DNA of 64,000 bases from Polyangia bacterium (GTDB taxonomy: Bacteria; Myxococcota_A; Polyangia; JAAYKL01): positions 66,313 through 130,312 of the forward strand of contig JBNKCR010000025.1 in assembly GCA_050287845.1 (NCBI GenBank). The letters run 5' to 3'. The first letter of the stretch is position 1. Every line of letters begins with the position of its first letter. The notes below the pieces were generated by a model. That model searched no databases. It had not been told where the DNA came from and worked only from the letters and a program-made list of their open reading frames with translations. Below, in pieces: positions 1,910 to 55,878 of the stretch. The translations under genes were made by a program, and so were the position numbers.

Positions 1910-2055
1910 GTTCAGGTCTTCTGGCTTCCAGATCTCTCTATTCGCTGCGTCTTCCCGCCTCATCGGCAGTGACATATCTGCAGCTTTCGTCCCTGGTTAC
2001 AGCGGCGGTACCGCGACGGTGTTTCACCGTACTTCCCTTGGCCTTGCTGAGTGAA
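1910..2055 (-). ncRNA. Cobalamin riboswitch
   Basis: Minus strand reads AGGGAAGTACGGTGAAACACCGTCGCGGTACCGCCGCTGTAA ... GTCACTG ... GGGAAGAC ... AAGCCAGAAGACCTG (B12 box), directly upstream of cobA-cbiA. Confidence 0.9.
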
Positions 2056-7283: not shown

Positions 7284-8204
7284 CTATAAATTTTTTGCAT
7301 TGCAAAGCCCAACACCGTTGAAATGAACCGAAGCCCTGGCTGCATATTGAACAAAGTGATACAGGGTCCATTCGTTCGGTGGCAGGAGGCCTCCATCGTT
7401 GTACACAACACGGTGTCCCGCTTCGTCCACCAGAGGTTCGCCGTTGTCATTCAGCAGATTGGTTAAATCCTGATTCTTCAATTCCTCTTCTGTTACCAGA
7501 CCATCATCCCCCGCCATAGCGGCAAACGCGTCAAATCTCAAATCTTCGTCACCGGATGCCAGTGTGTCCCAGAAAAGATGAATGGCATGTGCGTATATAT
7601 ACGCCCCGATGGTTTTTCCCGCTTCAATGGAAATGCCCTGAGTGGTGTCTTTTCCATTGATGCAGTTCGAATAGACAGCGGCGATGGGCAATCCGATTCG
7701 AAACTGCACGGTACGCCCTTTTTCTGGATTTACCGCTTCGCCGGCCACAAGAAATGACCAGCCATTCTGTACCATCAGGGTAATATCGTTTGCGCTCGCG
7801 CTGATACTGACAGTCTGAGCATTCGGCGCCAATAGACTGAATCCAAAATCCAGTCTTCGGGCGGGTAAATTGTTTACAGTGCTGAGCGTCTCGCTGCCAG
7901 TGGCGCTTTGGGCCAGATCCAGCACCATGGGCCCAGCCCATCTCTCCACTTCGCTGGTATCATCCTGCTGCGAAAAAACCACATCGCCAATAACAATCAC
8001 ATACTTCGTGAACTGCAGTTGCCAGCCGTCAACAAATGCTGTGGTAATGCCATTTTCCGTATAGGGAAATCCCGTCCTCAATGCCTCGCCGCCGCTTACT
8101 TCAAGGGTCAGGCTGCCTTCGCCCGCAGTATCCTCGCTGACACATCCGGCAGCAATAAATACAGACAACAGTGTCAGGAGACAGGTAATTGTGAATTTTG
8201 TCAT
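7284..8204 (-). CDS. Lipoprotein associated with the TonB-dependent receptor
   Basis: Lipobox IAAGC; FVDGWQLQFTK and HAIHLFW; ATGA overlap with the upstream gene. Confidence 0.75.
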   Translation of the reverse strand: MTKFTITCLLTLLSVFIAAGCVSEDTAGEGSLTLEVSGGEALRTGFPYTENGITTAFVDGWQLQFTKYVIVIGDVVFSQQDDTSEVERWAGPMVLDLAQSATGSETLSTVNNLPARRLDFGFSLLAPNAQTVSISASANDITLMVQNGWSFLVAGEAVNPEKGRTVQFRIGLPIAAVYSNCINGKDTTQGISIEAGKTIGAYIYAHAIHLFWDTLASGDEDLRFDAFAAMAGDDGLVTEEELKNQDLTNLLNDNGEPLVDEAGHRVVYNDGGLLPPNEWTLYHFVQYAARASVHFNGVGLCNAKNL

Positions 8205-9040
8205 TGTTGACTCCATATAAAATCATAGGAATACCGATTGCGCACTGCCTGAACCAGAGCAGTCATTGCCTGAGTGTCATTGGTGAACCGATACACACCA
8301 TCGGATTCGACTTCGGTAAGGGTAGAAAAGTCTACCCCATCCAACCATGCATCCAGAAAAACACGCGTCAGCAAACGCCCTGGCTTTTCGCTCTTGTCAC
8401 GCAATGGAACACTGCCTTCAATGTTCTGTACAATTCGCATGGTGCCTTCATCGGGAATGGTAACCCGCGCACTGAATGGGATGGCCCGGTCCGCATTGGA
8501 TGCGGTACCAGTTAATAAAATTGAATCGTTCTGAAGCACGTTTAAGAGCGCATTCTCATCAACCACCGCCAGTCCCTGGTCGCCTCTGGGATGATAGTGC
8601 AGCTCCATGGAAAGGCAGGTTCCTTTTTCGCCGGCCACCATACCTGTGGACGTCACGGTTGGTGCCAGCAAATTGACTGCCTGTTGTTGAAAAACTTCGC
8701 CAAGGACTGTGCCATAATCAAATTGCGAATGGGTGGAACAGGCGTTGGCGATGCCAGTGTGGAACCACAGACTGTTTTGAGTCATGGCCTCTCCACTGTA
8801 ATAATACATTGGCCCCATAAGGACAATCGCCTGAGTCAATTGCACGGTCCATCCTCCGCTGGTGGTGAATGACGAGATACTGCCTTTGGATGTAGCCCCC
8901 TGAACGCCGGTGGCAAATGTGATGGATTCACCTGCTGTGGTCGCATCACACGACGTGGTCAAAAGGGGGGCTGCGGCGACAAACAGTGTTGCCGAGACAA
9001 TGACCGACAACAGTTTTTGTATGAATTGGGTATTTTTCAT
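8201..9040 (-). CDS. Lipoprotein associated with the TonB-dependent receptor
   Basis: Lipobox LTTSC; GWTVQLTQA; internal ACSTHSQF segment. Confidence 0.75.
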   Translation of the reverse strand: MKNTQFIQKLLSVIVSATLFVAAAPLLTTSCDATTAGESITFATGVQGATSKGSISSFTTSGGWTVQLTQAIVLMGPMYYYSGEAMTQNSLWFHTGIANACSTHSQFDYGTVLGEVFQQQAVNLLAPTVTSTGMVAGEKGTCLSMELHYHPRGDQGLAVVDENALLNVLQNDSILLTGTASNADRAIPFSARVTIPDEGTMRIVQNIEGSVPLRDKSEKPGRLLTRVFLDAWLDGVDFSTLTEVESDGVYRFTNDTQAMTALVQAVRNRYSYDFIWSQQ

Positions 9041-9117
9041 TGAGGACCTCTTAAAAAATGATACATGCCTCGCACTGCCGGACAGTTCTTTTTTCAGCCA
9101 GATAGGCGGGCAAAAAG

Positions 9118-10059
9118 TTACTCTTCTTCTGCAATCTGAAATACGGTGAACTCAACCGTACCGCCTCCGGGTATCGGCTTGAATCGAATGACATATGGCA
9201 CCGGATCTGTGCCTTCGGTCTGGTCATCGTCGCCATCCCATTCCAGGTCCGCATGCCAGTGTTCCGGAATATTTTCAGCGCACAGCGTCACCGCCGTACC
9301 GCCGGAAGTCGTCATCAGAGTGCCGTCCCGGTGCTGTATCCCATCGAATATACCTGTCTGATTGAAGAAAACAGCGTACTCGCCACAGCTGAATACCGGA
9401 AAATGAATGTAACTTGCTGCATTATTCGGCAACGTGACACTGATTCTGGTCTCCTGGTCCGCATGATAGTCTTCAGCAAATACATCATCGAATACCGTGA
9501 CAACCCCTTTGAATTCGACCGCCTCAGCCAGAATTGCATCACAGGCACGTTGTGGATCAAAGGTCTCTTCCACCGCATTCTTTTCGCACAGCGCTTCGGA
9601 TTCACTCGCCTGACATGTGGCGGCGGTTCCGCACGGTTCGATGGCGATAGACAAGGAACCGTTGTTCATTACACAATTGTACGCGCTGTTGTTTTCGCAC
9701 TTGAATGTCCCCGCTGCACAGGTGGATGTCTCATCCAGACACGCCGCAGTTGACGCACTGGTTTCCACACAGGCATATCCAAGGGCAGCGCAATCCGCGC
9801 CCCAGTGAAAATGAGGTTCCATTCCCTCAACGATGTGACAGTACTGCACCTTGTTACCAACGCACTGCTCCCAGCCGTCTCTGTCAGTGGTGCATTCGTA
9901 GGAAATATCCTGGTTGTAAGAGTCTGATGGTGATGTATCGGACGCAGTATCCACCGTGCTGTCAGCGTCGTTGCTGTTATCGTCACAGGCAGAGATTGAA
10001 ACGAAGAGGATCGCACTGAACAGTGCCGCGAGTTTCGAAATTTTGAATTGATTTTTCAT
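9118..10059 (-). CDS. Cys/His-rich lipoprotein
   Basis: Lipobox ISAC, Asp/Ser/Thr linker, many Cys; HFHW and HWHAD motifs. Confidence 0.75.
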   Translation of the reverse strand: MKNQFKISKLAALFSAILFVSISACDDNSNDADSTVDTASDTSPSDSYNQDISYECTTDRDGWEQCVGNKVQYCHIVEGMEPHFHWGADCAALGYACVETSASTAACLDETSTCAAGTFKCENNSAYNCVMNNGSLSIAIEPCGTAATCQASESEALCEKNAVEETFDPQRACDAILAEAVEFKGVVTVFDDVFAEDYHADQETRISVTLPNNAASYIHFPVFSCGEYAVFFNQTGIFDGIQHRDGTLMTTSGGTAVTLCAENIPEHWHADLEWDGDDDQTEGTDPVPYVIRFKPIPGGGTVEFTVFQIAEEE

Positions 10060-10121
10060 TTTTGCTTTTCCTTAAAAAAAATTCTTCCTCATGTTGTTTC
10101 GAGGAAGTGTAAAATTGATTT

Positions 10122-12521
10122 TTATTCCCTTTCTGCGTTTGACATGTCTTTTATGGAATGAAACAGGTCTTCCAGATGCAGGGTAAGGGTTCCCATTAAA
10201 TAAAACGGTTCTCCGGCGACAAAATGTCTTTCTGGAACCCGTGAAGGAGCTGCATCGGCAGCCATGAAATTGGATGCGTAATTGAACTCGGCCTGCCGGT
10301 ATTTGAGATTGAACAGATTCCGTATCTCCACCCCCAGAGAAAAATGCCAGAGTCGAATATCACCGCCCGCATTCAGCAGATACATGGCATCTCCTTTTTC
10401 ATCGAGAGGCAAAGGCCGTCCCGGTACCCAGGTGTATCCCAGACCAAAACTTCCGGTCATGGGCACTTTTTTGATGGCGAGATTCCCAATCTGTCCGGAT
10501 ATTGCCACATCGGCACGCACTACCATGCGTGGAATATAGGGCAGAAGCTCACCTGTGGAATCAAGAGTGGCCTGTGTCCAACCCGCATTCAGGAGCACAT
10601 CAAAAAGAGAAATGATTCTGGAACGGACGCCAAACAAAATCGCATGTCTTGTTGAGGCACCCGCGAGAATGTTTCGTCCGTCGGTTTCGCTGAACACAAG
10701 GTCCTTGTCCACCCTGGTGAGGCTGTAACTCAGTTGAGAGGACAATTTCAGAGGGCCCTGTTCCTTTCCGTAAGTATAGGCAAACCCCGCATCAAACTCC
10801 TGCGCTCTGGCAAACGGTGCGGTTTCGTTGTCAGAGAGCGCAGCCGCATCAGTGGACCTGGTGCCCTGACCGTAAGATATCATTCCATGTAAACCGCGAA
10901 TAATTTTCATATCCACAGTCGCGCGGGGATTCAGAGAAAAACCCATACTCTGACTGGTTTGATTGGGAACACGAATTCCCTCGCGGTCAGAATCCGCCTG
11001 ATTCTGGTCAGTGACGCCGAAACTGAATACATCCAGTCGCAGTCCGCTCCTGAGGGTCAGCCGATGAAACATGCGAATCTGAGCGCGAAACCAGCCTGCC
11101 ACATTGACAACAGTGAAATCATTATCGAACACCTGCCCATATGGAATCGCGGTGACCGAACGCAACCGAAGCTGCTCGGAGCTGCCTGTATCCAGACGGA
11201 TAGCATACCCCACCGCCAGACTCTGTTTCTGATCAAACAACGATTCGGTAAGCGTATACTTTCCTCTGGCGCCAGCAGTGACCACCTTGTAACGCATCTC
11301 CATCCCATCGCCCCTTTGTACTTTTCTTGTTTCACCATTTTCATCCACCAGCGAATCGTTGAACCATCCCGTGAAATTGGTACGCAGCCGCATGGTTTTC
11401 AATCCCGCAAAAACAACCTGTTTGAATTGCGACCGTTCAGGTCCGGCAGTCAGGTCAAATGATGTCAGAATGCGATTACTTTCTCCTCCCTGGTTGGGAT
11501 CATATGTATCAAAAAATTCCATTATGCCGTTTTCGTAATCATCCTCACGCACTACTCCTGGCTGATCAAATCTGGCCGCATATCCATACACGCTGATGCC
11601 ATAGGTGAAGTTCTGTCCCTCCCAGTCATCGGTGAATCTGCCCAATGCAAGAACACGCTGCGCCGCACGGTTTACGCCGTACCCGTCGCTGGTGTAGTAT
11701 TCGAATCCACCGAACGTGCCACTGTTTTCCTCCTTTGGCGCCCAGGTGAAAAGAGTTCGCCGGGTATTCCATCTGCCAAGTCCCAATGATACATTCGCTC
11801 CCTTTTCTGGCGCGCCGAGTTTGTATTCCGCAGTTCCGGCAAAGGCGAAATCTCCCTGTTCCGGATCAAACGCGCCTTCCGTGACAGCCACACTCTGAAC
11901 CAGTTCAGGAGGAATGAAGTACAGGTCCGTATACCCATGATTATGAGGATTGCTTACCTCGTTCAAAGGAATACCATCCACCAAAAACGCGATGTCCTGA
12001 CCTTCATTGGAGGCAAATCCGCGCATATAGGTTTCCTGAGCGTGTCCTTCGCCGCCGTGATTGGTAGTCAGAACTCCAGGTGCCAGCATCAATTGTTCGG
12101 CCACATTTTTACGCGGAATCACCCGAAGGGTGCCAATTTCCAGACTGTAATGAGATGCGGAAGTCGCTTCTGTACGCTGTTCGCCAGTTACAGTGGTGTC
12201 CTCAAGCCGATATTCCGACACATTCCCTTGCGTCTTTTCATCATGAATGGATGGTCTGTTCAACGATGATTGCGCCATCGACGCTGCTTCTTCGTTGACC
12301 GACTGCGACACCACCTCCGGAGAGGTTGGACGGGGGGCCAACTCGAGGTCAGGCACCTGTGTGTCTGTACCCGTGTCTATACTCATGTCTGTATTCTGTT
12401 CTGTATCCATATCCGTTGCGCCAATTGCAATTGACACGTCTACGTGAAGTAAAATACACACGCCTGCCATACAGCACAATTTGCCTGTTTTGAACCGCAA
12501 AACGAATCTCCCGCGACACAC
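10122..12521 (-). CDS. TonB-dependent receptor with His-rich plug
   Basis: Plug motifs NHGGEGHAQETYMRGF, FLVDGIPLNEVSNPHNHGYTDLYFIPPELV and GDFAFAG; barrel C-terminus RNLFNLKY...GEPF. Start uncertain. Confidence 0.88.
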   Translation of the reverse strand: MCRGRFVLRFKTGKLCCMAGVCILLHVDVSIAIGATDMDTEQNTDMSIDTGTDTQVPDLELAPRPTSPEVVSQSVNEEAASMAQSSLNRPSIHDEKTQGNVSEYRLEDTTVTGEQRTEATSASHYSLEIGTLRVIPRKNVAEQLMLAPGVLTTNHGGEGHAQETYMRGFASNEGQDIAFLVDGIPLNEVSNPHNHGYTDLYFIPPELVQSVAVTEGAFDPEQGDFAFAGTAEYKLGAPEKGANVSLGLGRWNTRRTLFTWAPKEENSGTFGGFEYYTSDGYGVNRAAQRVLALGRFTDDWEGQNFTYGISVYGYAARFDQPGVVREDDYENGIMEFFDTYDPNQGGESNRILTSFDLTAGPERSQFKQVVFAGLKTMRLRTNFTGWFNDSLVDENGETRKVQRGDGMEMRYKVVTAGARGKYTLTESLFDQKQSLAVGYAIRLDTGSSEQLRLRSVTAIPYGQVFDNDFTVVNVAGWFRAQIRMFHRLTLRSGLRLDVFSFGVTDQNQADSDREGIRVPNQTSQSMGFSLNPRATVDMKIIRGLHGMISYGQGTRSTDAAALSDNETAPFARAQEFDAGFAYTYGKEQGPLKLSSQLSYSLTRVDKDLVFSETDGRNILAGASTRHAILFGVRSRIISLFDVLLNAGWTQATLDSTGELLPYIPRMVVRADVAISGQIGNLAIKKVPMTGSFGLGYTWVPGRPLPLDEKGDAMYLLNAGGDIRLWHFSLGVEIRNLFNLKYRQAEFNYASNFMAADAAPSRVPERHFVAGEPFYLMGTLTLHLEDLFHSIKDMSNAERE

Positions 12522-12574
12522 GAACTCGTCGCCGATTTACACAACCAAAAAGATTTCAGTTTACCAGGACTGGT

Positions 12575-12991
12575 TCATCCATGAAAGATGGGCGGTGAAT
12601 TGGAAGGAGATATAGGATAAACAGGTTTGCAGAAATACGTATCTTCTTCAAATACCCGAATATCCAGTTGGACAGAAAATATCTGTACCGTATCGGCATT
12701 TTCATTACTCTGAAATATCTTTGCCTGTTGCAGTAAGGCAAACACGTTGCATTCGCGGTCCGAATCGGAATCTTTGTTGTCTTTTGGAGTGGAACGACTG
12801 CTGTCATGGGTCGAATGAACTGTGGATGCCGAATGTTTATGAACCACTTTGCCAGTGTGAGGATCAACGGAATGAGACACCAATGAAAAATGCAGCGAAG
12901 AAACAATCATCGACAGCAGCATCAGCGAGATGAGTATCAATGCATTTGTTTTCTGCTGCCTTATCGTTATGTGGCTCTCCCGTCTTTTCAT
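12575..12991 (-). CDS. His-rich DUF2946-like leader protein
   Basis: Hydrophobic N-segment, HSVDPHTGKVVHKH, a Cys, and a C-terminal SPSNSPP; directly upstream of the receptor gene. Confidence 0.6.
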   Translation of the reverse strand: MKRRESHITIRQQKTNALILISLMLLSMIVSSLHFSLVSHSVDPHTGKVVHKHSASTVHSTHDSSRSTPKDNKDSDSDRECNVFALLQQAKIFQSNENADTVQIFSVQLDIRVFEEDTYFCKPVYPISPSNSPPIFHG

Positions 12992-13196
12992 TCTTATTCG
13001 ATCTATCCTCCCAGGTAACCTCACTGATAATCAGTTGGCCTTCGTTGTCAAGCAAAAGGCGCTGGTGCGTCTAATTTGTTGGTTATGTGAAACGGCTTTC
13101 ATAGTGGTCTTTTAATTTTTGTTATGTCTGTTGATGACTATCTGCCGTTCACCGCTTCTCGAATAATTACGGTAATGTTTCGCATATCTGAATTCA

Positions 13197-13405
13197 GAAG
13201 AAAACCTGCAGGGCTGCATGCACGGCTGAAAAGCAGAAAGTATCGCGCACAGCCATCCATTGGCAAATGGATTCCCAGACGTTACGGCGCAAAGAGACCT
13301 CTGGCCATACCGGCCCTGGAGGACAAGATAGTGCAAAAAACAGTATCGATGCTTCTGGGAGCGGTATATGCGCCCATGTTTCTGGACTGCTCCCACGGGT
13401 GTCGG
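13197..13405 (+). pseudogene. Internal fragment of a group II intron reverse transcriptase/maturase
   Basis: EENLQ/(frameshift)LHARLKSRKYRAQP...WIP...KRPLAIPALEDKIVQ...YAPMFLDCSHG resembles the N-terminal RT blocks; no YADD; truncated at both ends. Confidence 0.85.
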
Positions 13406-13494
13406 GGGTACCCCCGACTTCTACTCGGAAAAGGACACCGCAATCGCGCTGTCGCGTGGTCAGTCAGGCGCCCGTGAAGCAGGGGCGTTCTGCC
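13406..13494 (-). repeat. Partial attC-like site downstream of the cassette gene
   Basis: Right after the stop (TGA TAG) the minus strand reads GCAGAAC-GCCCC-TGCTTCACGGGCGCCTGACT...AGTCGGGGGTACCC, an imperfect hairpin. Confidence 0.55.
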
Positions 13495-13496
13495 TA

Positions 13497-14117
13497 TCAA
13501 AACGAAAATGTTACACCGATGAATTTTTGTGTGTCGCTGCCAATAAATGATAGTGATTGAAATTCGAAATGATAATTCTGTATAGTTTTCAATCTATGCA
13601 GCCTTGGCAAGATACTGTTTGACATTCTTATCTTTTTAACGCCAGATATCAGAAATATTGTGCCCGGGATTCCTGTCACTCCAGAAACTACAAAAGATCC
13701 TGCTGCGAAAAGGTATCCGATGCCACAGAAATTTGGGTTAAAATCATCATCCTCATCTTTGTCTGAATTCGCATCGTCTCTATTGCATTCATCAACTCCA
13801 GCCACAGACGCAATTCCGATTGCGGTACCTGCAATGCTGGTCGTATAAAAGATGAAGCCAAGTGTTGTTAAAATCTTTCCAGTTCGCTTTTGCTTTTTAA
13901 AATGGTGAATTTCAAAATCGACAAATGAAATCTGGCTTGAATTGGTATTCTCAAGATAGATTCCATAATCTTTGTAAAAGACATCCTCGTTGAGAATGAG
14001 TTTTAAAATTACTTCATCATCCTGAGACAATTTCTGTGAAATTTCATTGGCTTGACATTGGTACGAAACAGACATCAGGTAAATTGAAGAAACGACAAAA
14101 ATGGGTAAACTCTTCAT
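13497..14117 (-). CDS. AT-rich hypothetical membrane/exported protein, cassette-like
   Basis: Start placed at MKSLPIF (14117); hydrophobic N-terminus, two TM-like segments, C-terminal GVTFSF; visibly AT-richer than its neighbours. Confidence 0.7.
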   Translation of the reverse strand: MKSLPIFVVSSIYLMSVSYQCQANEISQKLSQDDEVILKLILNEDVFYKDYGIYLENTNSSQISFVDFEIHHFKKQKRTGKILTTLGFIFYTTSIAGTAIGIASVAGVDECNRDDANSDKDEDDDFNPNFCGIGYLFAAGSFVVSGVTGIPGTIFLISGVKKIRMSNSILPRLHRLKTIQNYHFEFQSLSFIGSDTQKFIGVTFSF

Positions 14118-14229
14118 CACATGCGTTGGTTGCAAATTGAGTACCAATTTTAAGGCGGAAAAACTGTATGGATGTGAAGTAACGAATGTGAAAGTTTCAT
14201 ACAGTGCTTTTTTTGAAAGTGTGAAAACG

Positions 14230-14249
14230 GGCAGAATAAGCGCTTGCTC
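14230..14249 (-). repeat. attC-like end upstream of the cassette gene (intron 5' exon)
   Basis: Minus strand GAGCAAGCGCTT-ATTCTGCC; TTCTGCC is complementary to GGCAGAA at the other end of the gene. Confidence 0.5.
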
Positions 14250-14683
14250 GTGCCGAGGAAAGCTCGGTGACGTTGGGATAGGGAATGACGACCCTTGAAA
14301 TCGTCTTTGTACTCCAGTGGGTGAGCTGAGAAGTGACTCCCAATGGAACAGGGATTGGTCATCCGGTCCGTAGCTGAACTGAGAGGCGATTTTTGAGAAA
14401 GGATGTCTGAAGCAGAAGTGAAGCGAAAATGCAGGCTGCGTAATTGAATCCCGAAATATGTACAGTGGCGGTCCAATTGGATAAGCGAGAGTAAGTGAAA
14501 GTCGACGACTGCAAGCATCGGAAGGCTGTAGACCCTGTAGCGTCAATGACACGTGACTGAGACACCGCGGGGAATCTGGAGCGGGGCATGTTTTAAAAAG
14601 GGGCACCCGGGAACCTCGGGAGAGCCTACTGTTTCCTCTGGTAAAACACCGATGTTGGGTGTGGCGGGACATCAAAAACACCA
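14250..14683 (+). mobile_element. 5' part (domain I region) of a group II intron, truncated
   Basis: Starts GTGCCG; contains GCGAAAATGCAGGCTGCGTAATTGAATCCCGAAA, GTCGACGA...TCGGAAGGC, CCGCGGGGAATCTGGAGCGGGGCATG and GGGAACCTCGGGAGAGCC, which resemble conserved bacterial group II domain I segments; no RT ORF or DV/DVI follows. 3' limit approximate. Confidence 0.72.
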
Positions 14684-14734: not shown

Positions 14735-15310
14735 CTATGGCGCGATTACGACCCCGCGCACACAGCGGGCGTGGAAGCTGTAGTAAATGCGGGGTTTGTA
14801 AATGAATCCGCCGGCAAACCCGATGGCCCAGGCGCGGTCTGAAACGTCCGGAACCCTATCTGCGGACCAGTAGTGCTCGCACGGCGCGCCCAGTTCCACC
14901 GCTTTGGCGTAGCAACCGTTCATGGGGCCATCACCGAAGGCGCATGCATAACAGGCATTTGTCTGGCAATCGTTTTCAATGCAGGTGTCATCCACCACGC
15001 ATTCCCCGCCAGTCACCGTGGGCGCACATCCGGCCAGCAGGGTCCGAAGCTCCGAAATATGGGGCAATCGCCAGTCCTGCTGACCGTTCAGGTTCAGGGT
15101 GTCGCAATAATCCACGGCCTGACGCCAGGTGGCGTAGGTCTCGGGCAAATCCGCCTGCCATATCAGCCCGGTCTGAGGATCGGTCCATACGGACGCCACC
15201 ACCGGTTCTGTCGCGCATTCCGTTGAATCGTCGGCGCAGGCCGTCAGGGTGAGCATCAGTATACCGCACAGCACAGGTGGAATCTGAAGTCGCGTGAATA
15301 ATGATTTCAT
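14735..15310 (-). CDS. DUF1566 (Lcl-type) domain lipoprotein
   Basis: Lipobox LTAC; WTDPQTGLIWQ, TWRQAVDYC, DWRLPHISELRTL, YWS and ARCVR. Confidence 0.85.
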   Translation of the reverse strand: MKSLFTRLQIPPVLCGILMLTLTACADDSTECATEPVVASVWTDPQTGLIWQADLPETYATWRQAVDYCDTLNLNGQQDWRLPHISELRTLLAGCAPTVTGGECVVDDTCIENDCQTNACYACAFGDGPMNGCYAKAVELGAPCEHYWSADRVPDVSDRAWAIGFAGGFIYKPRIYYSFHARCVRGVVIAP

Positions 15311-15670
15311 TCCATAGGACATACTGTATTCATCACCATCCGGTCAATGACTCTGATGATACGAATTTTCCCGACACCCCCAATGCTTTCCCCGGGGCGA
15401 TTCCCGCGGACGCCTGCACCATGTCTCCGGTGGTGGTCCACAGGTGATCTGGCACAGCTGGCACACTGATGCCGTGTCGAGCAATTTCGCAATAATACGG
15501 GCAATTCCAATGATTTATTGTGTTGATTCGCAAAAATATCGTCGCGGACACAATGGTATGAATGTTGATAAGTACACCCGGAAGCAGCCGTTGAAATGAG
15601 CTGTCAACGAACGCCATTGCATTTTCGTTTGAGAGCCGCGTATAGTACGCCGATGATTGAAAGTACGCCG

Positions 15671-16786
15671 ATGACCGAACAACCTTTTTTTCCGCCGCCA
15701 CGCCGTGTTCTCTGGGAAATCACTGCCCACTGCAATCTGCGTTGTGCCCACTGTCTGGTGGATGCCGGCGGGGGTAATGTCGCCCGGGAGTTCAGTACCG
15801 ATGAGGCGCTGGCGCTGGTGGAAGATCTGGCACAACTGGGACCGACGGCCGTGTCCCTTACCGGAGGCGAACCGCTGCTGCGTAAAGACTGGTTTCAGAT
15901 TGCAGAGAAAATCCGCGCCCGGGGCATGGGGCTTCGGATGTCATCCAACGGGCATCTGCTGACCGAATCGATGGTGGAATCCCTCAAGGCCCTGAAGCTG
16001 GAGCTGTTTACCCTGAGTGTTGATGGCGACGAAGTCATCCACAATCGGCTTCGTCCCTATGCCCTTGGAAATGCGACGAAGAATTCGTTTCAGGATGTGC
16101 TGCAAGCCATCCGGTTGCTCAACCGGCATGGGATTGAGACCCACGTGATCACATCGGTGAGTCAGGAAAACCTGGGCGAATTGCCCCGCATTCACCAGTT
16201 GCTTAAACAATTTGATATCGCGCGCTGGATTCTGCAACTGGTGCATCCCACCGGCCGGGCCGCCCATTCAACCCCGTCCCGGGGGCACATGGAAAATGCG
16301 TGCACGCCCATTTTGCCGCAGCAATTGCCGGCGGTGGCCGATTTTATCGTGGCCCACGCCGATGATCCCGTGCTGCAACCCACCGCGTTCAACTCCATCG
16401 GCTATCTGAGTCGCCAGGAACCCGTGCTGCGCAAAAGCGGCAAACGTGCCCGCCGGCCCCTCTGGCAGGGATGTCAGTGCGGTATCGAGGTAATGGGCAT
16501 TGAACCCGACGGCGGCATCAAGGGCTGCGCCAATCAGGTGGGGGCGCCATTTGTGGTGGGCAACGCCAGAGAAGAATCGGTGGTGAACATCTGGAACGAT
16601 CGTCGGCGCTGGCACTGGCTTTCCCCCCGCCCCGCGGATGCCGGAGGAGACTGTGCGGAATGCGCCCTGTTTCACCTCTGCCGTGCCGGCTGCACCGCCG
16701 TGGCGTACCAATCCACTGGCGAACTGTACAACAATCCCTATTGTCTGCGGCGGGTGGCAGCGGCCGACTCCGATGCACCACATTAA
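15671..16786 (+). CDS. Radical SAM/SPASM domain protein
   Basis: WEITAHCNLRCAHC, LTGGEPLLR, CQCG...GIEPDGGIKGC and CAECALFHLCRAGC...YC. Confidence 0.92.
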   Translation: MTEQPFFPPPRRVLWEITAHCNLRCAHCLVDAGGGNVAREFSTDEALALVEDLAQLGPTAVSLTGGEPLLRKDWFQIAEKIRARGMGLRMSSNGHLLTESMVESLKALKLELFTLSVDGDEVIHNRLRPYALGNATKNSFQDVLQAIRLLNRHGIETHVITSVSQENLGELPRIHQLLKQFDIARWILQLVHPTGRAAHSTPSRGHMENACTPILPQQLPAVADFIVAHADDPVLQPTAFNSIGYLSRQEPVLRKSGKRARRPLWQGCQCGIEVMGIEPDGGIKGCANQVGAPFVVGNAREESVVNIWNDRRRWHWLSPRPADAGGDCAECALFHLCRAGCTAVAYQSTGELYNNPYCLRRVAAADSDAPH

Positions 16787-16797
16787 AAGGAAATCCC

Positions 16798-18090
16798 ATG
16801 AAAGTCGTATTTATTGTCGTTGACAGTTTCAAGAGCACCGCGCCGGGGTTTGGGGGTGGACCGGATTCGCCGTTTCTCGACCATCTCGCGCAGAATGGCA
16901 CCGTGTTTGAGCAGATGTTCGCCAGCGGCGCCTGGACCACGCCCTCCCTGATGGCCATGCTCACCGGATGCCTGGGTCATCGCATCGGGATAGCCCGGTG
17001 GCGTCATCCGTTTCCCGCAAAAATCCCCACCCTGCTCACCGCCTTTGCGGAAGCGGGGTTTGAGGTGAACTGTTTTCATCCCTATCCCAGATGGGGCTTC
17101 CTGACGGTACCGGACACGGGAGTGGTGAAAAACAGTCAGGACCCGGACGACATTGTGCGCACCCTCAAAAGCGCCCCGGGCAGCGATCAGTTTGTCCTCA
17201 TTCACCACTGGTGGACCCATCTGCCATACGCCAACCGGGAACTTTCGCTGGAGGCGTGGCACCGCCTGTGCGATTTTCAGTTGCGCTCCCTGGAAAAGTA
17301 TCCCCGGCAAATCCGGCCCAAACTGAAACAGTCCTACCTGAAAACGGTTCAGTATTTCTCGCAGCAGTTGCTCAATCGATATCTCGATGCCGCCACAGCC
17401 GGTGGCGATGATGTACTGCTGGTGGTTACCGGTGACCACGGGGAAACCTGGGGGGAATCTCATCCGGCGGGATACCGGGTGCAGAATGTGTACGATTTGC
17501 ATGGGCGATGGATCAGCGACGAAACGGTGCAGGTGCCCCTCCTCTTTTACGGCAAGGGCATTCCCGCGGCCCAACGGATTTCGGGGTTCGCCCGGGGGGT
17601 GGATTTGGCCCCCACCATCTGTGCGCTTTCGGGCATTCCCTGGCCCGGCCCGGCCCACTCGGCGGTGGGGGAAGAAACCATTGTCCGGGATATTGCCGGA
17701 ACCGATCGACTGGGCGTTTCTCTTTCGCCGAGCATCCTCAGCGGCGAAGCGACCATGTGCGAAAGTGCGCCCACCGTGAGCAGTCACAATGCATTTGTTC
17801 CGAGAACCTATCCGGACAGCGGCCCGGCCCTGTGGCGCATGCTCGCCGAACGCACCAGGGACGGATGGCACATCTGGGATGGGGTTGACCAAATCCGATC
17901 CACCTGCCAGGGCAAGGTGTATACCCAGCACGCCGAAGCCACGGACGATGCCCTGTTTGCGCGTCTGGAAGCGCAAAGGCTGCGGGCGGTGGACCCCGGT
18001 GCGCTGGTGAGCGATGCTGCCGTGGAGGAGCTTCGAAACAGCGATGAACTGGTGGCTGCGCGACTCCATTGTCTGGGATATCTGGAGTAG
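16798..18090 (+). CDS. Sulfatase-like hydrolase/transferase (alkaline phosphatase superfamily)
   Basis: FIVVDS, ASGAWTTPSLMAMLTG, THLPY, GDHGE, VDLAPTI and C-terminal LGYLE. Confidence 0.85.
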   Translation: MKVVFIVVDSFKSTAPGFGGGPDSPFLDHLAQNGTVFEQMFASGAWTTPSLMAMLTGCLGHRIGIARWRHPFPAKIPTLLTAFAEAGFEVNCFHPYPRWGFLTVPDTGVVKNSQDPDDIVRTLKSAPGSDQFVLIHHWWTHLPYANRELSLEAWHRLCDFQLRSLEKYPRQIRPKLKQSYLKTVQYFSQQLLNRYLDAATAGGDDVLLVVTGDHGETWGESHPAGYRVQNVYDLHGRWISDETVQVPLLFYGKGIPAAQRISGFARGVDLAPTICALSGIPWPGPAHSAVGEETIVRDIAGTDRLGVSLSPSILSGEATMCESAPTVSSHNAFVPRTYPDSGPALWRMLAERTRDGWHIWDGVDQIRSTCQGKVYTQHAEATDDALFARLEAQRLRAVDPGALVSDAAVEELRNSDELVAARLHCLGYLE

Positions 18091-18092
18091 GA

Positions 18093-19163
18093 ATGACCGA
18101 TTCGTTGACCATGCCGAAAAGATGTTACTGGGAACTTACCCGACGCTGCCTGGGCGCGTGCGTGTTCTGCCGCAACGGGGGCGCAACAGACATGGCGGAG
18201 CTGTCGTTGGCACAGTCCCTTCAGGTGGCCGATGAACTGGTTCGTCTGGGCATCCGGCGGGTGGTGCTCACCGGCGGCGAGCCGGTACTCTACGATGGGT
18301 GGGAAATGATTGCTGCCCGGCTGACCGCCAACAGCGTGCGCGTCTGGCTGTTTACAAGTGGCATGGGCATGACCGATGAACTGATTGATTCAGCGCGCGG
18401 GGCGGGTATCTCCCGGGTGCTGATTCCCCTGGACGGGGATGAGGCCACCCACCGTCGCCTGCGCCCAGCCGCTTCGGACCGGGGGATGGGTTCGTATGCA
18501 GCCGCCGTCAGCGCCATGAAGAAGTTCGAAGAGGCGGGGATGCCGGTGATTGCGGTCACGGCGGTCAATCATATCAATGCACGGGTGCTGAACGGGATTT
18601 ACGCCACGTTACTGAACCTGGGCGTGCGGGACTGGCAGGTGCATCTGGGCCAGCTGACCGGACGCGCCAGTGAACATCGCCTTGAACTGATGTGTACCCA
18701 CGACGATATGGAAGCCATTGTGGACATGTTGAAACGGGTGGCTGTGGAAAACCGAATCCATGCGCCCCTGCATTGCACCGTAGGCTACATGGTGCCGGAA
18801 GAAGCCCTGCTTCGAAGTCCCAATGCCTCCGGGCAGCCCTTTTTTGATGGATGTCCGGCGGGCATTCGCACCTTCGGCATCACCCCGTCGGGAAAGGTGA
18901 AAGGCTGTACCGCCATGGAAGACGAGTTTGCCACGGCGAGTCTGAGGCAGGAATCGCTGGAAACCATTCTCAAAAACGACACACATTTCGCGGTGACGCG
19001 GATGGATGAAAGTCACCGGCACCTCGAAGGCCCGTGTGCCACGTGTTCGTTTGGCGGCGTGTGCCGGGGCGGGTGTCCGGCGGTGGCCTATGGGCTCACC
19101 GGCGCAGTCGGCGCCAACCCGGCGTGTCTGCACATCCTGCGAAATCGTTCTGCAAACCAATGA
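18093..19163 (+). CDS. Radical SAM/SPASM domain protein (paralog)
   Basis: WELTRRCLGACVFC, LTGGEP, CPAG...GITPSGKVKGC and CATCSFGGVCRGGC...AC. Confidence 0.92.
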   Translation: MTDSLTMPKRCYWELTRRCLGACVFCRNGGATDMAELSLAQSLQVADELVRLGIRRVVLTGGEPVLYDGWEMIAARLTANSVRVWLFTSGMGMTDELIDSARGAGISRVLIPLDGDEATHRRLRPAASDRGMGSYAAAVSAMKKFEEAGMPVIAVTAVNHINARVLNGIYATLLNLGVRDWQVHLGQLTGRASEHRLELMCTHDDMEAIVDMLKRVAVENRIHAPLHCTVGYMVPEEALLRSPNASGQPFFDGCPAGIRTFGITPSGKVKGCTAMEDEFATASLRQESLETILKNDTHFAVTRMDESHRHLEGPCATCSFGGVCRGGCPAVAYGLTGAVGANPACLHILRNRSANQ

Positions 19164-55802: not shown

Positions 55803-55878
55803 TGGTGGAGCCGAAGGGACTTGAACCCTCGACTTCCGCATTGCGAACGCGGCGCTCTCCCAACTGAGCTACGGCCCC
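55803..55878 (-). tRNA. tRNA-Ala(CGC)
   Basis: GGGGCCGTAGCTCAGTTGGGAGAGCG-CCGCG-TTCGCAA-TGCGG-AAGTCGAGGGTTCAAGTCCCTTCGGCTCCACCA; 76 nt with encoded CCA. Confidence 0.97.

Follow-up and report, generated by a model that had tools for sequence, protein, structure and literature searches.

An integron cassette of a Polyangia bacterium whose two attC sites are probably split by remnants of a class E-like group II intron

Group IIC-attC introns such as S.ma.I2 and Kl.pn.I3 belong to class C and insert into R'' at TTGT/T, on the bottom strand of attC, according to the available parts of PMC3001079 and PMC7923331. This position (bottom strand, TTGT/T) was confirmed here at the plasmid locus L256, whose name Kl.pn.I3 is taken by inference from the accessible text of PMC5027574, the record itself reading ltrA only. 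One IIC intron in an attC top strand is also cited in the portion of PMC7923331 at hand. Introns outside IIC have been described within cassette arrays as well. UHB.I2 (IIB1/CL1) follows an attC, is co-oriented with the cassettes and has the non-consensus ends UUGCG...GU, and the class E fragments H.ha.F1 and H.ha.F2 lie within a CALIN (Sonbol and Siam 2021, PMC7923331, available sections). The locus described here resembles the IIC-attC introns in that a group II retroelement occupies a fixed point of attC and parts cassette genes from working recombination sites. In contrast, its reverse transcriptase (RT) is not of class C (28% identity), it lies on the attC top strand, it breaks L'', and a 6-bp EBS1 pairing is possible. 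With UHB.I2 and H.ha.F1/F2, as they are presented in those sections, it shares being a non-IIC intron within a cassette array; however, UHB.I2 is a CL1 intron that sits just past attC, and H.ha.F1/F2 are 5'-truncated and have no defined insertion point. Neither an L'' target nor UCGYG...GA ends are reported for these elements in the same sections of PMC7923331. No class E lineage inserting in L'' and no UCGYG...GA ends were found in the titles and abstracts searched, most subscription papers lying outside that search.

The window, which is the whole stretch of 64,000 nucleotides that was analysed, lies on contig C25, and its features are collected in Table 1. A first-pass annotation of the letters had proposed that both attC sites flanking a cassette were invaded inside the arm by a non-IIC, different attC-targeting lineage, and this proposal is supported by the class E-like RT and by a recurring junction in L''. 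We consider it quite probable that the two attC sites of the cassette are split in L'' by remnants of a class E-like intron, from a lineage that likely homes to the top strand by RNA-DNA pairing and would inactivate the sites that it enters. Judged from the sequence comparisons below, the locus is a genuine relic of a separate lineage that homes to attC and whose insertion site and termini are both unusual, and its intron copies are to all appearances dead.

Table 1. Positions of the features in the window, with the basis of each assignment.
Feature	Position	Strand	Basis or remark
Cobalamin riboswitch	1914-2038	-	RF00174, 71.9 bits
TonB-receptor-like gene immediately preceding the relic; neighbours lipoprotein-like and His-rich	7284-13024	-	
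Class E-like group II intron RT fragment (about RT1-RT2)	13197-13405	+	blastx, tree with P0001/P0122
Intron domain VI and 3' end (ends GGA)	13401-13429	+	Same end in G003:C111; copies in other flanks; gamma = U
Upstream attC, right part: rest of L'', variable stem, L' (13472-13479), R' (13487-13494)	13430-13494	+	nhmmer, alignment with G003 site
Cassette ORF, 206 aa	13497-14117	-	ORF list
Weak sigma-70-like promoter match (9/12), upstream of the inverted gene	14163-14192	-	Lead only
The cassette's own attC, left part: R'' (14230-14237), spacer, start of L'' (14243-14247)	14230-14247	+	Matches intact attC left arms
IBS1	14242-14247	+	6/6 pairing with EBS1
Intron 5' piece (domain I), starts TCGTG, cut off before J2/3	14248-14683	+	RF02005; five aligned 5' ends
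Candidate EBS2 core	14459-14461	+	3-bp candidate
EBS1	14511-14516	+	Exact complement of 14242-14247, 6/6
Lcl C-terminal domain protein, downstream	14735-15322	-	PF07603, E 2.6e-20
Radical SAM-like and sulfatase-like genes, downstream	15596-19163	+	By eye
tRNA gene	55806-55878	-	RF00005

The upstream remnant contains the 3' part of an intron. By blastx, 13214-13405 matches residues 66-129 of the group II intron RT P0001 (426 aa) with 86% identity, and the likeness continues by eye for a few further codons back to about 13197, across a frameshift near 13211; the RT fragment annotated at 13197-13405 therefore stands. This fragment is joined by an internal deletion to domain VI, and domain V is lost. 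The segment 13401-13429 forms a stem-loop followed by a bulged A, with the putative branch A at 13423, and then by GGA, and the 3' splice site is 13429|13430. In G003:C111 the matching 3' end stands after an RT C-terminus and domain V. Therefore, 13401-13429 was assigned to the intron as its domain VI and 3' end, and it is not attC, although a hairpin remnant of attC had previously been read from 13406.

The downstream remnant is the 5' part. Rfam family RF02005 (group-II-D1D4-6) matched 14334-14583 with 41.5 bits (E 9e-10), which is below the gathering score of 49, and the homology of the piece to its relatives reaches 14646, one short common piece extending to 14682. Since its EBS1 is the exact complement of the six nucleotides ending at 14247, the 5' splice site was placed at 14247|14248. 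Such a domain I EBS1 loop pairing with an IBS1 that abuts the 5' splice site is the same motif as in control introns, and one contig of run X3 starts exactly at 14248, which is a weak hint to the same point. The intron 5' end annotated downstream of the cassette is thus real as an RF02005 piece, but it begins at 14248 with TCGTG and not at 14250. Likewise, the insertion point GCTTGC(A/T)C|GGG has to be replaced by a break at TGC|A, because it was 2 nt off at the 5' end and rested on domain VI misread as attC at the other.

The intron termini are UCGYG...GA in normal register, compared with GUGYG...AY in class E. A total of 164 loci were examined for 5' ends and 39 distinct ends were assigned; outside the clade of the window intron there are 37 such ends, beginning with GTGCG in 30 cases, with TTGCG in 4, with GTGTG in 1 and with AAGCG in 2 that were probably misassigned. 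Both clade members that retain J2/3 have TTA there, where most relatives have GGA, and TTA allows the gamma U to pair with the A at the intron terminus. We also considered that the first 2 nt might be a 5' extension, or that the intron had arisen in permuted form by way of an intron circle, and rejected both, since TCGYG aligns base for base with TTGCG and GTGCG and the 3' end lies at the normal distance from the branch A. The likeness to 5'-shifted introns (C.te.I1 and fungal rRNA introns), which carry extra bases before a GUGYG-like motif in the accessible text of PMC4024640 and PMC4424553, is therefore superficial. The TCGYG start is in the canonical register without any shift, so that it gives no counter-example to the speculation made in the available part of PMC4024640. 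The G of a GAA loop was tried as EBS3 and discarded because this G is invariant whatever the +1 base is, and no EBS3 was found.

For the attC halves, a profile of the genome's own attC family was made from six seeds and gave 30 matches in the genome, 28 of them at E<=0.05, with arrays on C143, C141, C27, C150, C81 and other contigs. No attC family came up in Rfam scans. Against this nhmmer profile the right part at 13430-13494, whose variable stem contains a 4-nt duplication, scored E 1.4e-9, a value that is partly circular because the seeds were found with the same half. A full left arm could be parsed by a regular expression in 11 of the 28 matches, the other 17 being left out. In all 11 parsed intact sites the L'' pentamer is followed by A and never by TC, whereas at the left attC half in the window TC and intron sequence come next, and A is the first base of the right attC half. 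Both breaks in the window lie in the L'' box of attC, between C and A, just past the extrahelical base and on the attC top strand. The complementarity of the cores 14230-14237 and 13487-13494 was confirmed (7/8 Watson-Crick). Joined at the corrected breaks, the two halves scored 45.2 bits over model positions 8-73 and contain the boxes R''-L''-L'-R' with an extrahelical base in L'', as in the genomic attC profile; alternative joins scored 41.3 and 39.6 bits, the latter being the join of the first-pass annotation, which matched through its right part only. The fold of the joined halves gave a z of -1.5, in comparison with -4.8 to -7.4 for three intact sites. With the corrected join the reconstructed site scores as an attC against the profile, and its fold agrees with an attC only weakly. 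Joined halves from other genomes gave a z of -3.0 for G662 and of -0.05 to -0.8 for G001/G003, which do not fold as a whole attC. Contig C25 has one attC profile match only, the window's own, and an integron integrase is found elsewhere in the genome, on C81 (TIGR02249, 385.7 bits, over the cut-off). The earlier description of the locus as a CALIN-like relic was therefore given up.

Between the two attC halves in the window one of the three spacer positions pairs, whereas all 11 intact sites have two or three paired. Together with the weak fold, this suggests that the halves come from two different attC sites, as they would in a tandem array. Two tandem copies of the intron had been proposed from the order of the pieces, and two tandem insertions are probably what the remnants represent, being the likelier history. 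The same order would also arise if one excised circular cassette with one intron in its attC had been opened inside the intron and integrated here, a course of events that we regard as unlikely and that, like the further alternatives below, partly overlaps with the main reading. It would agree with intron pieces that do not overlap (5' RNA on one side, RT residues about 60-129 and domain VI on the other), with the complementary cores, with outer ends that both lie inside the intron and with the lack of a second attC on the contig. However, the poor spacer pairing and the poor fold of the joined halves speak against it, ordinary array neighbours also show core complementarity by eye, and a similar tandem order occurs on a Desulfosarcina plasmid. 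No empty site was seen, and the flanks match those of relatives only in the upstream receptor gene.

Identity of the window 5' piece amounts to 67% with the 5' portion of a G662 relative (412 nt) and to 66% with a full-length copy (254 nt). Two full-length relatives of 2269 and 2270 nt, which are 99% identical and lie in unrelated flanks, are present on the plasmid NZ_CP087953.1 of Desulfosarcina sp. BuS5. Their identity runs from TCGTG to GGA and the next base is A in both, and such copies in unrelated flanks point to recent mobility. Different copies in G662 supply a 5' end, a 3' end and a head-to-tail joint, and these fall on the same two points. At this joint (L297/L322, G662:C425) two clade introns stand head to tail, the first being broken by an insertion element, and the joint probably represents a second insertion at an exon-intron junction. 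Because a single element, both at the G662 locus and in the plasmid copies, combines the 5' RNA homologue with a GGA end and an RT from this clade, the RT and RNA fragments of the window can be ascribed to one intron class, as the earlier reading had supposed. By these comparisons, all the intron pieces of the window are assigned to one class E-like lineage.

The trees were quick or FastTree trees. A clade of 17 rows, with support 100, contains the four rows linked to these junctions; 13 of its 17 rows have no DNA context, and the 22 rows with other ends fall apart from it. P0001 is 28% identical to the RT of the IIC-attC control, which is on a separate branch, and 34% identical to the C23 RT of this genome. 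In a tree without a named class E reference the RT is placed among introns of the RF02005 type, apart from class C, and P0001 resembles H.ha.F1 in its motifs by eye. The label class E is thus provisional and is taken from RF02005, from the position in this tree and from the likeness to H.ha.F1. As far as bacterial class E (IIE) is covered in the available part of PMC3753933, the window clade shares with it an RT without an endonuclease domain, and an EBS1 loop and an EBS2 bulge in domain I. The window 5' piece also belongs to the same Rfam family, RF02005, as the C1 intron of this genome. On the other hand, the class E relatives start with GTGCG or TTGCG (34/37), mostly end with AC or GC and have varied targets, whereas in the window clade the intron starts with TCGYG and ends with GA, the triad is AAC, J2/3 reads TTA and the preferred targets are attC left arms. 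In L258, L322 and L317, the domain V triad AAC was seen together with a changed J2/3 (TTA or TCA, not GGA).

No full-length clade intron was found in this genome, and a DNA search of 401 own-phylum genomes gave no convincing further copy. An alignment search of the same 401 genomes returned 30 loci, only relatives with ordinary ends, and 1 of 24 loci from a further sample, 401 genomes of the phylum of G478, belongs to the clade (G662). Pattern scans for close relatives gave 27 loci on genome contigs and 80 retained of 125 on metagenome contigs, all with <=50% identity. In viral contigs nothing was found with P0123, and 44 pattern matches had no intron sequence behind them; in phages the best identity was <=41%. 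The junction pattern was dropped as a search tool for the 401 genomes, since it matched 198 of them and control matches were common, and a looser EBS1 script returned no match. Sequence look-ups with the window piece and P0001 gave no relevant look-alike.

The junction between C and A of L'' recurs in two congeneric genomes (G001 and G003), in G662 and on the Desulfosarcina plasmid. Ten 5' ends were available, five from three of the 21 family genomes, two from G662 and three from the plasmid; one of the ten follows another intron copy. All five in the family genomes come after an attC left arm in the same register, and they need not be independent events. AAY stands 13-11 nt upstream (-13..-11) in 9/9 5' exons, compared with 2/37 class E-like relatives outside the clade, and eight of the nine exons resemble an attC left arm, two plasmid copies among these sharing a duplicated flank. 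Six 3' ends were seen, and one is the head-to-tail joint, which leaves five exons; A is the first base in all five and the attC right arm continues in four. The break lies 10 nt past AAC/AAT of R'', and in three attC sequences that differ from one another it stands one base past the extrahelical base of L''. EBS1 varies along with the exon, pairing at 6/6 positions in the window, 5/6 in G003:C15 and 5/6 in G662 (partly by eye); the plasmid EBS1 pairs with its own exons at 3/6 and 4/6 only, also by eye. The EBS2 bulge has a conserved UGU, and the EBS2 register varies among 28 controls. This UGU core might read AC-A at the edge of R'', which is a weak inference from the sequence.

Across four other genomes the introns differ widely, with RTs 51-86% identical to P0001. 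This diversity has to be weighed when asking if the lineage is specialised on attC at all, because it might instead recognise a loose AAC-N10-A motif, with attC as frequent and harmless carriers, or one old insertion might have been spread by cassette copying. We find both versions improbable. For one of the two full-length plasmid copies the target is not an attC (fold z +1.1) and shows the identical AAC spacing, so that targeting probably depends on sequence and is not confined to attC; the expectation that full-length copies would not lie in unrelated targets thus held in part, failing for this copy. Furthermore, this genome contains 221 matches to the motif AAY-N5-YTTGCA, most of them outside attC, and 5' junctions reveal attC left arms only and not whole hairpins. 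Against this, four of the five 3' exons are attC right arms though attC makes up a small share of the motif matches, and the attC sequences and the introns differ widely across the four other genomes, EBS1 varying with the exon. The attC-like site on the plasmid was recognised by inspection and a fold z of -2.5, and no integron integrase was found on NZ_CP087953.1. The plasmid region L261 (NZ_CP087953.1:1488-5644) was observed to contain a full intron, an attC-like right arm and two genes, followed by a 240-bp flank that is duplicated and bears the 5' stub of an intron, truncated close to an IS4; this order resembles that in the window. Lastly, structure-guided targeting as in IIC-attC, in which the protein would read the folded top-strand hairpin by its extrahelical base and EBS1 would be secondary, is quite improbable, for the register fixed to the extrahelical base across dissimilar attC sequences and the weak EBS1 pairing in the plasmid copies are outweighed by the non-attC copy without a hairpin, by the full or near-full EBS1 pairing in three members and by an IBS1 that would lie buried in the L-box stem of the folded site.

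Under the favoured reading, homing by RNA-DNA pairing, the ribonucleoprotein would find the attC left arm by base pairing and reverse-splice at C|A. In P0001 the sequence stops at the maturase region and no endonuclease domain follows, and its priming is therefore probably dependent on replication, as is established for introns lacking this domain (PMC4424553, accessible text); an RT of this kind would be expected to carry out replication-linked reverse splicing. An insert of 2.2 kb in L'' would block the bottom-strand hairpin needed by IntI, and the cassette would be frozen. After two successive attC sites had been hit, later deletions ending inside both introns may have left the relic away from the integrase.

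The cassette gene itself is inverted relative to the attC top strand. The AT-rich minus-strand gene noted earlier was confirmed (ORF 14117-13497, 36.5% GC). Its 206-aa protein has a hydrophobic N-terminus and C-terminal hydrophobic helices; it had no Pfam match and no homologue at E<=0.001, and in the ESM Atlas it reached a feature score of 0.95 to unnamed hypothetical clusters. The promoter pattern occurs at 7 sites in the region versus 2.6 expected by shuffling. The intron is indeed antisense to the cassette gene, as had been stated, but only because the gene is inverted; the orientation is not that of a IIC-attC intron, since the intron lies on the attC top strand, which is the opposite.

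The same arrays hold a second array intron, presumably of CL1-like class, judged from a motif. Three of its 5' ends are found directly past attC R' (GTTAY|), and ORF-less or shortened CL1-like introns lie past R' on the top strand at G000:C150:2984-3965, C27:40713 and C141:6514. They end with GGA, as the class E-like clade does. Eight CL1-like domain V/VI ends were seen, mostly at cassette starts (C27, C32, C89, C150), and several survive as 3' ends only. In chimeras at G000:C32:32000-32330, L015 (G001:C507) and L179 (G001:C407), a class E-like 5' piece is fused to a CL1-like 3' piece; these chimeric elements occupy the attC position and some hold REP-like repeats. Toxin-antitoxin-like gene pairs were seen by eye as cassettes at G000:C27:38900-40200 and C150:2360-2900. 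Other introns of the genome include a class E-like one with an ordinary GTGCG start at G000:C1:1414-3084, at the end of a recurring unit that is intron-free at C1:170-230 after an attC-like GTTA, a class C-type intron outside attC by eye (G000:C23:13250-15254), and a further one of another Rfam family on G000:C3. The CL1-like lineage resembles UHB.I2 as described in the available sections of PMC7923331.

A more ambitious proposal is offered tentatively, and we lean somewhat against it. It holds that a dedicated and still mobile class E clade with rewired UCGYG...GA termini cuts attC at the extrahelical base that IntI needs, EBS2 reading R'' and EBS1 reading L''. Together with the CL1-like R' lineage it would form chimeric mini-introns that replace the whole attC, and in this way cassettes might become locked in place and be lost from the integron pool.

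In the textbook view, attC targeting is confined to a single lineage, of class C, which recognises the hairpin of the bottom strand. A class E-like clade at the top-strand L'' would add an independent, sequence-programmed route to the same safe haven. An insertion in L'' would strike attC at its functionally most sensitive point. It would silently take cassettes out of IntI shuffling and hide attC from integron detectors.
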